A DNA stretch of 64,000 nt from a virus. Lineage: Duplodnaviria > Caudoviricetes. This document shows, piece by piece, positions 5,494 to 62,814 of the stretch. The notes under the pieces are model-generated. The model did not search any database. It was not told where the DNA came from and saw only the letters and a program-made list of their open reading frames with translations. How positions within the stretch are numbered: the first letter of the stretch is position 1; each line of letters starts with the position of its first letter. Location: IMG/VR virus record IMGVR_UViG_3300037721_000031, positions 64,001 to 128,000 of that record. One strand, 5' to 3'. The translations under genes and the position numbers were made by a program.

Positions 5494-6216
5494 TCATTTT
5501 AAAAGAGATTCGATTCTTTCAACTCTTTCGGAAGGATTTACTAAAGCTGAAACAATACCATCTTGCATGTATGATCCGGCAAGTTTGTTGGTAGTGTTAG
5601 TAGCAGAATAAGCCACACTCTTCAGAGGAATAAACGCAGGTTTCTTATTTTTGATATCATCTGGGCTATGTATGGACTGACGATAGTATTCTGCTCTATT
5701 ACTTTGATTTCTACAGATAATACTAACCAGTAACTCAGTTACTTCTCTTTCACTACCAATATTAACACCACCAAATTTCTTAGCGGTATCAAATATCTTA
5801 GCAAGATCTTCGTAACTTAGAAATGCAGGTATTCTACCCTTAGCAAAGAATTCACTATAGATTCTGTAAGGAATCTTGTTATTCTGAACCACATTCATAT
5901 TTGGTATAACTGTGCTTCCAGCTGGGAAAGTGAATTCGTAATACTCATCGCCATCAATTACAATGCGGTTTACAGATTCTGGAGTTATACGTAAGGTAGT
6001 ATTGACAAGGGATATTGCAGAGTACTTACCTTCCATAACTAACAGATAGATACCTACAATGTTAGTTTCAACACCTACTGAAGCCAGTCCGCATTCTGAG
6101 AAGCGGACTGGTAAGTAGATGGCACAGCTCTTAACAGTAACTAACCTATCGTCCGCTAACTCGCGGAGATGGGCACGAACGTACTGTGGGTCTCGGACTA
6201 GACCTTTAATATCCAT
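5494..6216 (-). CDS. Probable virion RNA polymerase beta'-C subunit (SPN3US gp244-like)
   Basis: 240 aa, directly upstream of the protease; C-terminal SATNTTNKLAGSYMQDGIVSAL resembles the beta' C-terminal region; mainly synteny. Confidence 0.6.
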   Translation of the reverse strand: MDIKGLVRDPQYVRAHLRELADDRLVTVKSCAIYLPVRFSECGLASVGVETNIVGIYLLVMEGKYSAISLVNTTLRITPESVNRIVIDGDEYYEFTFPAGSTVIPNMNVVQNNKIPYRIYSEFFAKGRIPAFLSYEDLAKIFDTAKKFGGVNIGSEREVTELLVSIICRNQSNRAEYYRQSIHSPDDIKNKKPAFIPLKSVAYSATNTTNKLAGSYMQDGIVSALVNPSERVERIESLLK

Positions 6217-57307: not shown

Positions 57308-58394
57308 CTTCCTGACTTCTGTAGAGCGCGAAAGCGCCACTGGTTATCATCTCAGCTTAAACCTGGAATTACTACGCGGATGCCAGTTTAGCTGTAAGGG
57401 TTGTTTCGTAGATAAGTATGGTTCAGATCCAATGACTGACGAGCGAGGTGCGCAGCTTCTATCTTGGGTTACCAGTGCGCAAGAAGATGGTGGTTATCTA
57501 CCTACGGTAATATTTATCGGACCTACTGACTTCTTATCCTCTGGGAATACCATCGACGTACTGCGAGATCCACGTATTCAGCAAGTTGTCAGACGTTTTA
57601 AAAGACTATCTCTACAAACTACTTGTTTAGATATCAGTACAGCTCCAGAGATTGCTAAAGTGTTACGTGAACACTACAGTCATATGGAACTCGAGGTTAA
57701 CTTCTTAATGGAGCCAGAGCATGTTCTAACAGAGAAGTACCTTCGTACTGTTAAAGAGAATAGAGACAGTCTGTATGAGATAATTGACTGGCACATTCCC
57801 GTAAAAAGCTTCTGTATTATGAACGTCTATGAATACGAGAATGCAAAGAAAGATGACGTCATTAAGCTATTAAATGACTACAAAGAAATGCATTTGCGTA
57901 TCAAGGATATGTTTGATACTACAATTGACTTTAACTTCTCGATGTCAAGAAAACACAATCAAAACAAGTCATCCGAAGTTAAAGAAGCAATCATCAGAGT
58001 AACTAAGATGTTTGATAAAAGTGTTAATCACGATACATCTCAGTTTATTCGTTTCTCGTTTGGAAAATTAACTGATAGTCTGATCGAGAAACATTTTAAC
58101 TTTCTTAATGGTAAGTTTTACGTGTCACCATTACTTTACGATCGTTATGTAGCTTTTGTGCCAGAGTTGCAAATACCGTTTGTAAACTTTACTGTAGCTG
58201 AGTCTGAAGCATTTGAAGAACAGCTACAGCTAGAGCAATATCAGAATGCCGGCCAAAAAGACGAATGTGGTAGTTGTCGTTATCTTGGGTCGTGTACGGA
58301 TAGAAATATTCTTAAAGTTATGGATATCTATTCTATCAAGCACTGCATCATAGCGCGAGACGCCTTGGACAGTATTAACGTACGGCCAAATTAA
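57243..58394 (+). CDS. Radical SAM enzyme 3 (divergent, GPTD type)
   Basis: GCQFSCKGC, FIGPTDFL, C-terminal CGSCRYLGSC; probable start at about 57255-57258. Confidence 0.85.
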   Translation: MKEIMMSEVSQLTVPKHLKTDNFLTSVERESATGYHLSLNLELLRGCQFSCKGCFVDKYGSDPMTDERGAQLLSWVTSAQEDGGYLPTVIFIGPTDFLSSGNTIDVLRDPRIQQVVRRFKRLSLQTTCLDISTAPEIAKVLREHYSHMELEVNFLMEPEHVLTEKYLRTVKENRDSLYEIIDWHIPVKSFCIMNVYEYENAKKDDVIKLLNDYKEMHLRIKDMFDTTIDFNFSMSRKHNQNKSSEVKEAIIRVTKMFDKSVNHDTSQFIRFSFGKLTDSLIEKHFNFLNGKFYVSPLLYDRYVAFVPELQIPFVNFTVAESEAFEEQLQLEQYQNAGQKDECGSCRYLGSCTDRNILKVMDIYSIKHCIIARDALDSINVRPN

Positions 58395-58404
58395 CCTAGT
58401 AACA

Positions 58405-58444
58405 GCATAAGAGAGACTAGAGCGTACGCTCTAGTCTCTTGTGC
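58405..58444 (+). terminator. Hairpin inside the radical SAM cluster
   Basis: GCATAAGAGAGACTAGAGCGT-ACGCTCTAGTCTCTTGTGC. Confidence 0.65.
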
Positions 58445-58469
58445 CATAATTTAATAAAAGGTACTTGAC

Positions 58470-59531
58470 ATGCAAAATGCTGAAGAACAGTTACTTAAAC
58501 AGTTACTCGCTTCCAAAGTACAAGATTCCTCAGAAATAGAACACCATTTATTCGAATTGTGCAATCTTAATTGCTCCTTCTGCGGACAGGATCATGATTC
58601 GAAAGAAGGTATTGATACAATCTTAGAGAAAGCTCATCAGACTGTGGAGTTCATGCGTAACTCTCCATTGAAGAGCCATACAGTCAATGTGATGGGTGGC
58701 GAGATCTTTAATGATTTGGTACCAGATTCTGTATTTGATGACTATTATGCTTTTTATAAAGTTATTAATGACTATGCAGTTTCAAACGACCTTACAGTTA
58801 GAATTAACTTTGTAACCAATTTAATATTTTCTAAGAATACTTCTAGTGTTCAGAAATTACTTGAGATATGTGGTGACAATGTTTGGATTTCTACGTCTTA
58901 CGACTTTGCTGGTAGGGGGCTTGATATAAATCGCATGATGATGTTCAAACGTAATCTAGAGATCTTTAAGCCTCGTATCGGAGTAGTTGGTTTTGTACTG
59001 GCTAAGCCATCTATTCGTAAGTTGATTGCTGATAAAGATAAGTTCTTTAAAGAAGTTCTATACGCTAACTACCCGTTGTACTTTGATTGGTATGTACCTG
59101 AAAATAGTGCAGATAAGATGATGCCTTCAGAGCAAGAGATGCTTGACGGTCTTCTATTCGTTGCTGATCGTTATCCTAAGATAGAGCCAGTTAGAAGCAT
59201 GTTAGAAAATGAAGAAAATAAGATGACATGCTTTTCACTTAATAAGACAACTATCTTACCAGATGGTCGTGAAGTTAAGTGTAGGTATATGGAGTATGAA
59301 GCTGAACAGTTTGAGACTCCAATCGATTATTCTACTAATAGTGGAATCATCAATGCGCATCTCGAACGTAATGAATGTTTTAGTTGCGAGTGGTATAAAA
59401 GGTGTCCATTAGTATGCTTCGTACAATCAGACTGGACAAAAAGAGAAAGACTACCTGTCTGTTTTATGAAAACATTCTTTAACACAGCAGTCGGAAAAAA
59501 TAATGCCACCAACGATACAGATGAAAGATAA
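58470..59531 (+). CDS. Radical SAM enzyme 4
   Basis: CNLNCSFC, MGGEIF, VTNL, STSYD; C-terminal CFSCEWYKRCPLVC. Confidence 0.92.
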   Translation: MQNAEEQLLKQLLASKVQDSSEIEHHLFELCNLNCSFCGQDHDSKEGIDTILEKAHQTVEFMRNSPLKSHTVNVMGGEIFNDLVPDSVFDDYYAFYKVINDYAVSNDLTVRINFVTNLIFSKNTSSVQKLLEICGDNVWISTSYDFAGRGLDINRMMMFKRNLEIFKPRIGVVGFVLAKPSIRKLIADKDKFFKEVLYANYPLYFDWYVPENSADKMMPSEQEMLDGLLFVADRYPKIEPVRSMLENEENKMTCFSLNKTTILPDGREVKCRYMEYEAEQFETPIDYSTNSGIINAHLERNECFSCEWYKRCPLVCFVQSDWTKRERLPVCFMKTFFNTAVGKNNATNDTDER

Positions 59532-60270
59532 AAGATTCGGTAGATTAACAGTTATTGATAATGGTACAAGGTTACCTAACCGTACTCGTGTTTATGAGTG
59601 TCTATGTGAGTGCGGAGTTGTTAAAAAAGTAGACGGTGGTAATCTGAGGCATGGAGTAATAAAAAGTTGCGGATGCTTACGTCGTGAGATTGTTAGTCAA
59701 AGCAATAACAATCTCACTCACGGGATGCGCTATACACCGGAATATCAAGCTTGGATTAACATGCGTAGACGATGTGATGCGGGTCCAGATACGAGGGAGT
59801 ATGCGTATTACGGTGCTAAAGGGATTACTGTTTGCGAAAGATGGCTGAACAGCTTCGAAGCTTTTTATGAAGATATGGGTCCTAGACCATCGCCAGACCA
59901 TTCTATCGATAGAAGAGAAAATGATAAAGGCTACTACAAAAATAATTGTAGATGGGCTACCTGGGAAGAGCAGCAGAATAACAGAAGTAATAATTCAGTT
60001 AATACTGTTGATGGAGTTGTATATTCCTCTATTGCAAAGCTGGCTCGTGAAAAAAATATATCAGAAGCTACTGTAAAAGCAAGAATCTATAAACAAAATA
60101 TGTCTGTAGAAGAAGCTGTTTCTAAAGGAACAAATCGCTATTCACTTATGGTAAACGGTGAAAGTAAATCTGTTAATGAGTTAAGTGAAATAACAAATAA
60201 AACATCTGCTACAATTCGATATCATCTTAGAAGAGGTAGGACTGTAGAAGACATACTTAAAGATAGGTAG
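59503..60270 (+). CDS. Free-standing HNH homing endonuclease overlapping the rSAM-4 3' end
   Basis: RFGRLTVI, CLCECG, SCGC, YGAKGITVCERW, HSIDRRENDKGYYKNNCRWAT; C-terminal HTH repeats. Confidence 0.88.
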   Translation: MPPTIQMKDKRFGRLTVIDNGTRLPNRTRVYECLCECGVVKKVDGGNLRHGVIKSCGCLRREIVSQSNNNLTHGMRYTPEYQAWINMRRRCDAGPDTREYAYYGAKGITVCERWLNSFEAFYEDMGPRPSPDHSIDRRENDKGYYKNNCRWATWEEQQNNRSNNSVNTVDGVVYSSIAKLAREKNISEATVKARIYKQNMSVEEAVSKGTNRYSLMVNGESKSVNELSEITNKTSATIRYHLRRGRTVEDILKDR

Positions 60271-60387
60271 CTTAGATGTTTCGTGAATGCAGATTGGACA
60301 AAGCTAGAGAGACTACCAACTTGCTTTTTAAAGACATTTTTTAATGAAACAGTTGGAAAGAAGAATCATGTTCAGACGACTACTTGA
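60271..60387 (+). pseudogene. Orphan diverged duplicate of the rSAM-4 3' end
   Basis: Translates LRCFVNADWTKLERLPTCFLKTFFNETVGKKNHVQTTT*, versus the rSAM-4 tail LVCFVQSDWTKRERLPVCFMKTFFNTAVGKNNAT... Confidence 0.9.
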
Positions 60388-60526
60388 TGTGTTTATGAAA
60401 GTTACCGGTAATAGTCAATATGGCTGGTGGGCTAAGTATTTATGGGAGGATAAATATGTTTGGTCAGCCACTAAAGAGGCAGCTATACTTGGCTGTCGTC
60501 AAAGAGCAATGGAGAGTAAGAAATGA
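60368..60526 (+). CDS. Small hypothetical protein (52 aa)
   Basis: ATG at 60368 after GGAAAGAAGAATC; MFRRLLDVFMKVTGNSQYGWW...; overlaps the next gene (ATGA). Confidence 0.5.
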   Translation: MFRRLLDVFMKVTGNSQYGWWAKYLWEDKYVWSATKEAAILGCRQRAMESKK

Positions 60527-60849
60527 TTAAAACATTTACTCTGTTCTTTATAACTGCTTACTTTGAGATTCTTGGCTGTTACTCAGTATTGCAATATGTC
60601 AAAACATTTCGGCAAAGTGGCTCCTCTGCCATAGCTCTTATTACTGCAATTATATCTCTCAGTATATTTGCGTGGCTACTTACATTACACCCAACAGAAT
60701 CTGGGAGAGTGTATGCTGCTTATGGCGGCGTATATGTACTTACATCTCTTTTATGGTTGTGGCTTATTGATGGAGTTCATCCGACTGTATCGGATATCTC
60801 AGGAGTAGTGTTAATATTACTAGGCTCACTATTGATAATGAAGCAATAA
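60523..60849 (+). CDS. ynfA: YnfA/UPF0060 family small membrane protein (SMR-like)
   Basis: FEILGCY, LTLHP..SGRVYAAYGGVYV..SLLWLWLIDGVHP; four hydrophobic helices. Confidence 0.88.
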   Translation: MIKTFTLFFITAYFEILGCYSVLQYVKTFRQSGSSAIALITAIISLSIFAWLLTLHPTESGRVYAAYGGVYVLTSLLWLWLIDGVHPTVSDISGVVLILLGSLLIMKQ

Positions 60850-60867
60850 CCTCTCTGGAGAACTATC

Positions 60868-61113
60868 TTGACTTTTGAAGAACTGTTAGAATTGCGTAGA
60901 ACACAAGGTCCAGAAGCTGCAAATGAAGTTTTAAAGACAATGTCTCTAGAACAGATGAGGGACATTACCATTGAAGCTAATAAACAAATTATAAATTTGG
61001 CTAACTTATTTGTTGCGACTTATATGGATTATGCTGTTGAAGCGAACCTACCATCTGCACAAAAAGCAAAACAAGATGTAGATTTTCTCATTAAAAAGGT
61101 AAATGGGAAATGA
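60868..61113 (+). CDS. Hypothetical protein
   Basis: 81 aa, TTG start after GGAG. Confidence 0.6.
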   Translation: MTFEELLELRRTQGPEAANEVLKTMSLEQMRDITIEANKQIINLANLFVATYMDYAVEANLPSAQKAKQDVDFLIKKVNGK

Positions 61114-61553
61114 AGTACGTCGTAGGTCTTTTATTCAGTAAGAAATTGGATCAAGTTCTACTTTTAAAAAAGGTAAAAGGTCCAGAAGGCGTTGTAGGTA
61201 AGTGGAACGGTCATGGTGGTAAAATTGAGCCAACGGAATATGCACTAGATGCTATTGTAAGAGAAACAATTGAAGAGACTGGATTAGTTATACCTGCAAA
61301 AGACTGGTTACTATTTCATCACTTTATTCGAGCCGATGGTAATGAAGTTTATTTCTATACATCTACTATACCAGATAGTCAAACGTACAGTCAGATAGAA
61401 GAAGAAACTATTGAACTAAAATATGTTAATGATGTCATACTGTCTTTTCTTGGAGACGGTAGTTTAAACAATCCACATGTTTATAACTTGTCATACCTTA
61501 TTCCGATGGCGTTGTCTTATTGTAAGTTTCCACAGTTTCGTTACGCTGAGTAA
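61110..61553 (+). CDS. Nudix hydrolase (MutT-like)
   Basis: GKWNGHGGKIEPTEYALDAIVRETIEETGL Nudix box. Confidence 0.9.
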   Translation: MKYVVGLLFSKKLDQVLLLKKVKGPEGVVGKWNGHGGKIEPTEYALDAIVRETIEETGLVIPAKDWLLFHHFIRADGNEVYFYTSTIPDSQTYSQIEEETIELKYVNDVILSFLGDGSLNNPHVYNLSYLIPMALSYCKFPQFRYAE

Positions 61554-61560
61554 ATCAGCT

Positions 61561-61737
61561 TCATTAAATAATGCGAATAGAGAGCTTTTATTATTTTATA
61601 ATAATAAAAATTGGACAGTTGGTGATCTATCTAAAGAATTTGGTATTAAGTATTAGACACTCTACGACCGTATCTTTACTAAAAGATGGAGTGCTGATAA
61701 GTCCATTAATACACCTGTTAATGTTAGGAGTACATAA
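61561..61737 (+). pseudogene. Remnant of an HNH endonuclease C-terminal HTH domain with an internal stop
   Basis: Frame from 61561: SLNNANRELLLFYNNKNWTVGDLSKEFGIKY*TLYDRIFTKRWSADKSINTPVNVRST*; TAG at 61654-61656. Confidence 0.65.
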
Positions 61738-62814
61738 ATGGATCTCATCCTGAAACCAACTTCCGCTTGCAATTTTCGCTGCACGTTTTGCAGTTCAACA
61801 GTTTTAAGTGAAAATGATTCGGATGTACTGGATCTATCTTACGTACGAGAGTTTCTCGTACGTTTCCCAAATACACGAACCATCATAGTCAATGGTGGTG
61901 ATCCGCTAATGATGAGACCAGAGTACTATTGGGAGATTATCAGTATACTTGAAGAACTGGGGCTGAAAGATACCACGATATCACTTACAACTAATCTATG
62001 GGCATTCTACAAAAAGCCTGAGATGTGGCAGGATCTTTTCAAACATCCTCAAGTTGGAGTAGCAACAAGTTTCCAGTATGGTAATGCACGCTTGAAAGGT
62101 GACTATAAGCCTTATACAGAAGAAGAGTTCTGGAAAGTATCTGATTTGTTTTTAGAACGTATTGGATACAGGCCTAGTTTCATTGCGGTCATTACAAAAG
62201 AAAACGAAGACTCAGCAATACAGACTGTTGAATTGGCTAAGAAGATGGGTGTAGTGTGTAAGGTCAATTATGCAGTAGCTTCTGGCCCTAAGAAAACCAC
62301 ATTCAAAGGTATCACAATTGGTAATGCTGGTAGTACGTATGTGCTGTCTGACATTTACGAAATGTATATCAAGATCCATGAAGCAGGATTGACGCAGTGG
62401 GAACATAACACTTCACAAATGGCTGTACGTTTGCGTGGTGAGAACACTACATGCCCACAAGCTCGTGATTGCGACAGCGCTATTAGAACTTTACAGCCTG
62501 GAGGTAAATACTACTCCTGTGGGGCTTTTGGTGATGATGGTCTGTACCCCATCGACTTTAAAAAAGAAATGACTGGAGAGCTCGCTAGGCCCCTGCAAAC
62601 GCATGAGCTAATGTCATTGAAAACTGCGTGCTTCGAATGCCCGATGTTTGATATCTGTAATGGGTGTAGGAAAACTACTCACGATTTGAAGACACTAGGT
62701 TTAGTAGAAACACATTGCAAGAAAATGAAGACTCTTGCATCCAAGATCATTGAGATCAACGGTATGTCTGATGTGCTTAAACCTACTCCTTACATTAAGG
62801 AATATGAAGAATGA
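61738..62814 (+). CDS. Radical SAM/SPASM enzyme 5
   Basis: CNFRCTFC, NGGDPL, TTNL; CPQARDC, YSCG, CFECPMFDICNGC. Confidence 0.93.
   Translation: MDLILKPTSACNFRCTFCSSTVLSENDSDVLDLSYVREFLVRFPNTRTIIVNGGDPLMMRPEYYWEIISILEELGLKDTTISLTTNLWAFYKKPEMWQDLFKHPQVGVATSFQYGNARLKGDYKPYTEEEFWKVSDLFLERIGYRPSFIAVITKENEDSAIQTVELAKKMGVVCKVNYAVASGPKKTTFKGITIGNAGSTYVLSDIYEMYIKIHEAGLTQWEHNTSQMAVRLRGENTTCPQARDCDSAIRTLQPGGKYYSCGAFGDDGLYPIDFKKEMTGELARPLQTHELMSLKTACFECPMFDICNGCRKTTHDLKTLGLVETHCKKMKTLASKIIEINGMSDVLKPTPYIKEYEE

Follow-up and report, generated by a model that had tools for sequence, protein, structure and literature searches.

A jumbo-phage endonuclease gene that probably carries a substitute end for the radical SAM gene it invades

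Introduction

How can an endonuclease gene lie across the 3' end of a conserved enzyme gene and leave that gene whole, and why does a second copy of the same gene end follow it? These questions are raised by a locus in a 64,000-nucleotide stretch of viral DNA, hereafter the window, which comprises bases 64001-128000 of the IMG/VR virus record IMGVR_UViG_3300037721_000031 (266.6 kb, estimated 98% complete). The invaded gene, rSAM-4, encodes a radical SAM/SPASM-like enzyme and sits in a co-directional series of radical SAM genes. Its named relatives are distant, namely the Ralstonia/Burkholderia jumbo phages RSL2, RSF1 and FLC8 (Chiangmaivirus), with ~65% amino-acid identity in rSAM-4. We consider it probable that a unit composed of a putative homing endonuclease gene and a variant rSAM-4 tail entered the 3' end of the resident gene, stranding the native end downstream as a headless remnant and leaving rSAM-4 whole.

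Results

Anatomy of the rSAM-4 locus

The locus is built from the following features.

58470..59531, plus strand: rSAM-4, the invaded host gene, an open reading frame (ORF) for a radical SAM/SPASM-like enzyme of 353 amino acids (phrog_1802, E 5e-48; weak Pfam match to Radical_SAM).
59376..59531, plus strand: U tail, the endonuclease-linked variant 3' tract of rSAM-4 in the tail alignments, from CEWY.RC.LVC to the stop; its 5' limit (59376) is approximate and was placed by comparing the relatives L021 and L025.
59493..59505, plus strand: GGAAAAAATAATG, purine-rich Val-Gly-Lys codons, likely a ribosome-binding site, with the endonuclease ATG; same register in L021 and RSF1.
59503..60270, plus strand: ORF for a putative free-standing homing endonuclease of 255 amino acids, whose ATG lies 29 nucleotides (nt) inside rSAM-4 in another frame.
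60271..60387, plus strand: D remnant, the stranded native-type 3' end of rSAM-4, 38 open codons from (L)RCFV without the upstream body.
60355..60370, plus strand: GGAAAGAAGAATCATG, the native tail-embedded ribosome-binding site with the start of the next gene; same arrangement in L010 and in the endonuclease-free L041 (GGGAACAAGGAACATG).
60368..60526, plus strand: conserved ORF of 52 amino acids that starts inside the D remnant, with homologues in L010-L013 (60%) and L015 (51%).

The rSAM-4 gene is intact, and the tail alignment shows every tail cysteine kept. Its U tail has Leu-Val at 59409-59414 in place of a near-invariant Phe-Arg, and the last nine codons overlap the 5' end of the endonuclease gene in another frame. 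Directly after the endonuclease TAG, and in the endonuclease frame, the D remnant begins and reads LRCFVNADWTKLERLPTCFLKTFFNETVGKKNHVQTTT up to its stop codon.

Comparison of the two tail copies

A preliminary description of the window, made from the letters and their translations, had reported a diverged homologue of the rSAM-4 end at 60271-60387, and the alignment bears this out. From 59409 on (LVCFVQSDWTKRERLPVCFMKTFFNTAVGKNN...), the rSAM-4 tail can be aligned to the D remnant with no gap. Of the first 32 codons, 23 encode the same residue in both copies, 10 with the same codon and 13 with a synonymous one, and nine encode different residues; nucleotide identity is 68% over 87 nt. The translated Smith-Waterman score of left against right flank is 136 at the rSAM-4 endonuclease and 31-45 at other endonuclease paralogues of the genome, so the similarity of U and D is not due to chance. 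None of the eight other paralogues is flanked by a duplicate; the single score of 89 among them reflects whole paralogous membrane-protein genes on both flanks and was rejected as a tail duplicate.

The synonymous share between U and D (57%) lies within the 49-63% found between the window and its relatives of 80-85% identity, compared with 37% between the window and its closest relative. The tail most similar to D is that of the endonuclease-free L015 (22/29 residues and 76% of nucleotides, on a level with the body identity of 74%), to which U is identical at 18/29 residues and 70% of nucleotides. Between the window and L010, 24/29 residues of the U tail are conserved, 12 of them via synonymous changes. 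Judged by its sequence, the U tail is functional and under purifying selection, because all cysteines are kept and synonymous changes dominate this comparison.

The start codons that the preliminary description had noticed hidden in both tail copies were found at 59493-59505 and 60355-60370, with an offset of 3 nt relative to the tail alignment. Several different genes start at the tail Val-Gly-Lys codons: the 52-residue ORF in the window remnant and in L010, an unrelated gene in L041, and the endonuclease in the window, L021 and RSF1. The Val-Gly-Lys(-Lys) codons (GGAAAGAAG and the like) thus likely serve as a predicted ribosome-binding region for whatever gene follows, which would explain why both copies bear a start codon in the same place. 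The expectation that endonuclease-free relatives run from rSAM-4 directly into the 52-residue ORF failed, as none of them does so; only L010 keeps 11 D-type codons before this ORF, and in the endonuclease-free L041 a different gene starts at the same spot in the tail.

A second occurrence in a separate lineage

The same arrangement was found in L021, L022 and L023, which come from three samples and encode the protein P0033, with a body 60% identical to that of the window rSAM-4. As in the window, L021 has a Leu-Val tail, an overlapping plus-strand endonuclease gene and a stranded native tail. The endonuclease overlaps the rSAM-4 tail by 41 nt and has a homologous 5' end, with rSAM-4 terminating in ...DERKEIR in L021 and in ...DER in the window; the 3' end of the endonuclease (AAAGATAGG) is homologous in both as well. 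Moreover, the remnant begins at the Arg-Cys-Phe-Val codons in both, 3 nt (window) or 7 nt (L021) after the endonuclease stop. At this junction AGG-T is a candidate microhomology extending a few codons upstream of 60271, too short to be separated from chance.

The nearest relative of the L021 body is the endonuclease-free L025 (88%). Over codons 81-300 the two genes have a nucleotide identity of 0.80-0.95, which then falls to 0.67 and finally to 0.55 in the last 40 codons. The L021 remnant is much closer to the L025 tail (77% of nucleotides, 24/29 residues) than is the in-use tail (62%, 18/29), and it is the stranded copy that carries the clade signature ECMFKLFF. Third-position guanine-cytosine content in L021 declines from the gene body (0.62) to the U tract (0.46) and the endonuclease gene (0.38). 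By these comparisons the L021 tail in use goes with the endonuclease, the stranded one is native to the lineage, and the junction falls at the same codon as in the window. The claim that the invader supplied the present end and stranded the ancestral one is supported by this layout, together with the linkage of tail type described below.

The L021 remnant is provided with a separate AGGAGG-ATG start, and in the sequence ATGA its stop codon overlaps the start codon of the following gene. A read-through fusion of the endonuclease to D, which the shared frame in the window would permit, was rejected on this comparison: in L021 the remnant lies in another frame and the in-frame relation is absent.

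Tail type and endonuclease among relatives

A search of 5.8 billion proteins yielded 139 rSAM-4 homologues, and 121 tails were examined, the FLC8 and RSL2 proteins included; gene context was fetched wherever available. Arg precedes Cys-Phe-Val in 115 of the 121 tails, usually as Phe-Arg. Leu-Val or Leu-Gly occupies that position only in P0003, P0004, P0020, P0033 and the window, and three of these four proteins beyond the window adjoin a confirmed endonuclease gene. The neighbours of P0004, known from the gene table alone as is the context of P0028, are two opposite-strand ORFs, one of 262 amino acids and one cut by the contig end; all five proteins, that of the window included, have neighbours of endonuclease size. 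In L021-L023 and L024, a plus-strand endonuclease gene overlaps the variant tail; in L024 (P0020) the contig ends inside this gene. Two distant homologues, P0115 and P0118, have Phe-Thr or Leu-Thr before Cys-Phe-Val and might represent further invaded or resistant alleles.

The preliminary description had held that an upstream-type tail in relatives without the endonuclease would speak against it, and no such relative was found. All endonuclease-free relatives with known context have the Phe-Arg (D-type) tail: L014, L015/16, L017, L025, L041, P0028, RSL2, FLC8, L009 and L018-20. They include the nearest endonuclease-free relatives of the carriers (L014, L025 and P0028), whose bodies are 84-88% identical to those of the carriers (86% for L014 and the window). 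Tail type is thus linked to the endonuclease, and the locus is polymorphic for its presence in four comparisons, namely window versus L014/L015, L021 versus L025, L024 versus P0028, and RSF1 versus RSL2.

The closest relative of the window, L010 (91% in rSAM-4), also has a variant tail. In this relative the site (region L010:6047-7075) is occupied by an endonuclease from another subfamily, encoded on the opposite strand and 59% identical to the paralogue G000:C1:165-959 of the window genome. A terminator-like hairpin is located at ~6100-6140, and only the last 11 codons of the D-type tail are left before the 52-residue ORF. According to the L010 layout, this site has been reworked more than once.

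In a tree of 46 enzyme bodies, from which the last ~45 residues had been removed, the five carriers fall in three positions. The approximately unbiased test rejects a single clade of the five (p = 7e-7) and also a grouping of P0020 with P0033 (p = 6e-5). The plus-strand endonucleases adjoining rSAM-4 (window, L021, L024 and RSF1), however, form one clade among 26 family members, with a Shimodaira-Hasegawa-like approximate likelihood-ratio support of 92. From the two trees together, one endonuclease lineage is tied to the site, where it has been gained or lost several times.

The inserted endonuclease

We regard the 255-residue protein as a putative homing endonuclease from a phage family annotated as HNH. 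In PHROGs it matches phrog_374, "HNH endonuclease" (E 2e-63), and it has a Cys4 module at the N-terminus, a beta-beta-alpha-like region in the centre (D132-H133 ... N148 ... N159/N160) and, at the C-terminus, two helix-turn-helix modules. The DH...N...N pattern is present, yet not invariant among the paralogues. Against Pfam, only the C-terminal helix-turn-helix was matched and no HNH model, and comparison with NCBIfam and with the PDB, by sequence and profile, gave no match. An AlphaFold model built from an 8-sequence alignment (predicted local distance difference test score 72) places strands at residues 133-135 and 151-153 and a helix at 154-160, which together cover the DH...N...NN pattern. 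Structural comparison gave weak fold matches of model residues 70-165 to the HNH restriction enzyme PacI (PDB 3m7k; Z 4.4, root-mean-square deviation 3.6 over 80 aligned residues) and of residues 165-203 to the DNA-binding domain of I-TevI (Z 3.5). A Foldseek search with the model found nothing at E <= 0.001. The HNH label of the preliminary description thus agrees with the phrog_374 assignment and the weak PacI match, but finds no counterpart among the HNH models of Pfam and NCBIfam or the PDB sequences.

Homing-endonuclease-like behaviour is suggested by the nine paralogues in the genome and by the presence or absence of the gene at the same spot in related genomes. The nearest relatives of the window endonuclease are the same-site enzymes of L024 (56%) and L021 (49%), whereas the paralogues of its own genome are 38-43% identical.

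Several further observations concern this family. The central catalytic-region segment (window 59809-59993) is 75% identical in nucleotides to the paralogue G000:C1:466-650 (L004), compared with ~43% protein identity in the remainder, a pattern that points to exchange of modules or to gene conversion within this set of nine paralogues. Another paralogue, G000:C1:220151-220783 (L005:1344-1955), is located within a tandem array of small paralogous membrane-protein genes (116, 143 and 134 amino acids). In addition, a marine metatranscriptome library from a separate study contains a 266-nt contig matching window 59585-59850 with four differences; transcription or carried-over DNA may be its source, and the contig is too short for an interpretation.

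Alternative explanations

The resident 3' end could instead have been duplicated in situ when the endonuclease inserted in each lineage, after which the copy in use would have gained the same resistance substitutions in parallel and the other would have drifted. This would account for the mosaic nature of the U tails. Across clades these share Leu-Val/Gly, Arg or Lys before Glu-Arg-Leu-Pro, Val before the last Cys, and CF[ML]KTFF, and they otherwise keep the residues of their own clade; the two L021 tails, in use and stranded, also have TKEL.H in common, as the two window copies have Thr-Lys. We nevertheless regard in-situ duplication as unlikely. The window copies differ at synonymous sites as much as lineages of 80-85% identity do, and the L021 copies are 62% identical in nucleotides, compared with a body ~85% identical to that of L025; a duplication would have to predate the split of these two and be lost precisely in L025. 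Moreover, the overlap of tail and endonuclease is homologous across lineages, and identical changes at at least four positions would be needed repeatedly. An older, vertically inherited element seems more improbable still. On this account the common ancestor had tail and endonuclease as a unit, which was then lost many times, for instance by recombination between the tail copies. The endonuclease tree does roughly resemble the body tree, the divergence is high (49% identity between window and L021), and the direct repeats flanking the endonuclease offer a route of loss. However, many independent, precise losses would be required, each restoring a pure native-type tail. After such long neutrality, stranded copies would not be expected to be open and to resemble the nearest endonuclease-free relatives, as they do. 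The endonucleases of L021 and L024 (76%) are also at least as similar as the host enzymes (71%).

That 59409-60270 is a self-splicing intron, or the endonuclease an intein-like insert, with the downstream tail as the real last exon, is very hard to credit. Excision would restore an in-frame native-type protein, as it would for any such duplicate. In agreement with the intron-free invasion proposed in the preliminary description, no Rfam family, group I and II introns included, was matched at E up to 1 in 58300-60700 on either strand. Just 94 nt precede the endonuclease ORF, and these are coding homologues of the tail under purifying selection; the separate start of the L021 remnant likewise argues against an intron. 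An intein is contradicted by the endonuclease having its own start and a different frame from rSAM-4.

Several points weigh against an inserted unit with its own tail. In RSF1 an endonuclease of the same clade (L008:5017-5670) starts 2 nt beyond a normal Phe-Arg tail and a duplicate is lacking, which means that the variant tail is not obligatory for carrying such an endonuclease. Here the gene lies precisely between rSAM-4 and the dihydrofolate reductase gene (DHFR), into which rSAM-4 of RSL2 (L001) runs straight; this plain intergenic state may be where the process began. The variant tail is present throughout the window's clade, in all three members, so that linkage and shared ancestry are confounded within the clade. 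The window D is just modestly closer than U to endonuclease-free relatives (the L015 figures above; 62% versus 60% of nucleotides for L014), and outside the signature positions the U tails carry residues of their own clade (QSDW in the window clade, NAD[WY] in the L021 clade); the Thr-Lys shared by window U and D is unusual. D is also better preserved than expected of a long-neutral pseudogene, which points either to a recent insertion or to a constrained remnant. The catalytic fold assignment of the endonuclease is weak. Outside these points, the likely source sequencing run, in the form of contigs, was the only run covering the stretch and shows a single form; as contigs drop rare variants, it lends no support to the absence of an empty-site allele.

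The mosaic U tails could stem from within-clade donors, from conversion of one copy by the other, or from parallel change and selection. A wholly foreign inserted tail would go beyond the data; the signatures span three body lineages, and the remainder resembles the own clade in each case. The same pattern of few shared signature substitutions in an otherwise clade-like tail qualifies the "recoded, probably cleavage-resistant" copy of the preliminary description.

Proposed route of invasion

For the favoured reading, an inserted unit with its own variant tail, we propose the following model. A lineage of HNH-annotated, free-standing endonucleases resides at the 3' end of rSAM-4 in RSL2-like jumbo phages. 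In the window, its unit of ~0.86-0.9 kb comprises a variant copy of the last 40-50 rSAM-4 codons, joined in frame to the body, followed by the endonuclease gene, the start codon of which is embedded in the variant tail. The unit would enter at, or one codon before, the Arg-Cys-Phe-Val codons of the resident gene and push the resident 3' end downstream, together with the ribosome-binding site and start of the next gene. As the imported tail would replace the displaced resident end, rSAM-4 would stay whole without splicing.

The likely route would be double-strand-break repair, with the enzyme cutting endonuclease-free alleles near the Phe-Arg-Cys-Phe-Val codons, which lie within the coding sequence of the conserved Cys-rich C-terminal domain. 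The shared junction, and the change from Phe-Arg to Leu-Val/Gly right at it, suggest that the enzyme recognizes or cleaves this stretch. Repair would copy the U tract and the endonuclease gene of the donor, using homology in the gene body. Homology on the downstream side may often be missing, since the region after rSAM-4 differs greatly between relatives, and the far side might be closed through illegitimate joining at the break, or through annealing with a stranded tail if the donor already has one. T4 provides a documented case of one-sided homing with illegitimate break repair (PMC2988022), and what one-sided repair of this kind leaves over would be precisely the resident 3' end. A stranded tail, where a donor has one, could act as a downstream homology arm. 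The in-use tail is probably a poor substrate on account of the shared substitutions, namely Phe-Arg to Leu-Val/Gly, Leu to Arg/Lys in front of Glu-Arg-Leu-Pro, and Val before the last Cys.

The region downstream of rSAM-4

The interval that separates rSAM-4 from the following radical SAM gene (window 60368-61738 and its counterparts in L010, L014, L015, L018, L025 and L041) is a shuffling hot spot. Its genes, encoding YnfA/UPF0060, Nudix, DHFR and proteins of 52, ~82 and 229 amino acids, vary in order or are missing, and in L018 and L020 the two radical SAM genes abut with nothing between them. The gene after rSAM-4 is UPF0060 in L014 and L025, DHFR in RSL2 and P0028, the 82-residue ORF in L015, the 229-residue ORF in L041 and rSAM-5 in L018.

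Discussion

Mobile ORFs combined with a foreign C-terminus are known from fungal mitochondria, in atp6 of Allomyces macrogynus, atp6, atp9, cox2 and nad3 of Glomus, atp9 of Rhizopus and cox2 of Mortierella (PMC3630166). The phage locus resembles them in that a replacement 3' end, in phase with the resident gene, accompanies the endonuclease ORF and the native end lies downstream, in that the native remnant is nearer to relatives than is the inserted end (clearly in L021, more weakly in the window), and in that neither an intron nor an intein is involved. It differs in its host, a jumbo phage instead of an organelle, and in its endonuclease, which belongs to an HNH-annotated phage family rather than being LAGLIDADG or GIY-YIG. 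Furthermore, the fungal ORF is fused in phase, whereas the phage ORF has its own start, out of frame within the replacement tail, and the stranded phage end still bears the start signals of the next gene. The locus is thus a phage counterpart of a design so far described for fungal mitochondria; a limited search of the open-access literature found no precedent for a phage endonuclease with a replacement gene end and a stranded remnant.

Among phages, the free-standing T4 endonucleases SegF, SegG and MobE undergo intronless homing with co-conversion of flanks (PMC2988022). There too, the endonuclease gene adjoins a conserved gene, the flanks are co-converted, and related phages differ in its presence. 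In the T4 cases, however, the flank is replaced without a duplicate, or the gene is split, as in Aeh1 nrdA and T4 gene 60/39, while here the gene is whole and the old end is kept. A substitute end is also supplied by prophages and islands that use the 3' end of a gene as their integration site, such as phage 21 and e14 in icd and elements integrating into tRNA genes. Like phage 21 and e14, the invader described here brings a diverged copy of the target 3' end and the gene stays functional; those elements use integrase-mediated site-specific recombination at att sites, whereas endonuclease-driven break repair is proposed here and no integrase is present.

The locus also lends itself to experiment. 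RSF1 and RSL2 form a clean presence/absence pair in cultured phages that could be used for homing experiments. In addition, since empty sites occur naturally, the layout recurs independently and the junction codon is shared, the target site and the determinants of resistance can be guessed and directly tested.

It is conceivable, though we would not yet favour it, that such loci form a distinct phage class of splicing-free, gene-neutral mobile elements, consisting of an endonuclease and an exon-mimicking substitute gene end, with the stranded end as homology arm and translational coupler. If so, this double role would explain why the stranded end stays open and conserved, and the substitutions common to endonuclease-linked tails would map the recognition site of the enzyme. 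Recombination between the tail copies would then be a built-in means of precise loss, giving a cycle of gain and loss without an intron or intein.

For the annotation of phage genomes, small orphan ORFs after endonuclease genes can be stranded gene ends, and the 3' ends of invaded genes can have a separate history, which matters for annotation and phylogeny of the jumbo-phage radical SAM cluster. Homing endonucleases normally spare their host gene by hiding in introns or inteins or by sitting between genes; carrying a spare gene end would be a third solution.

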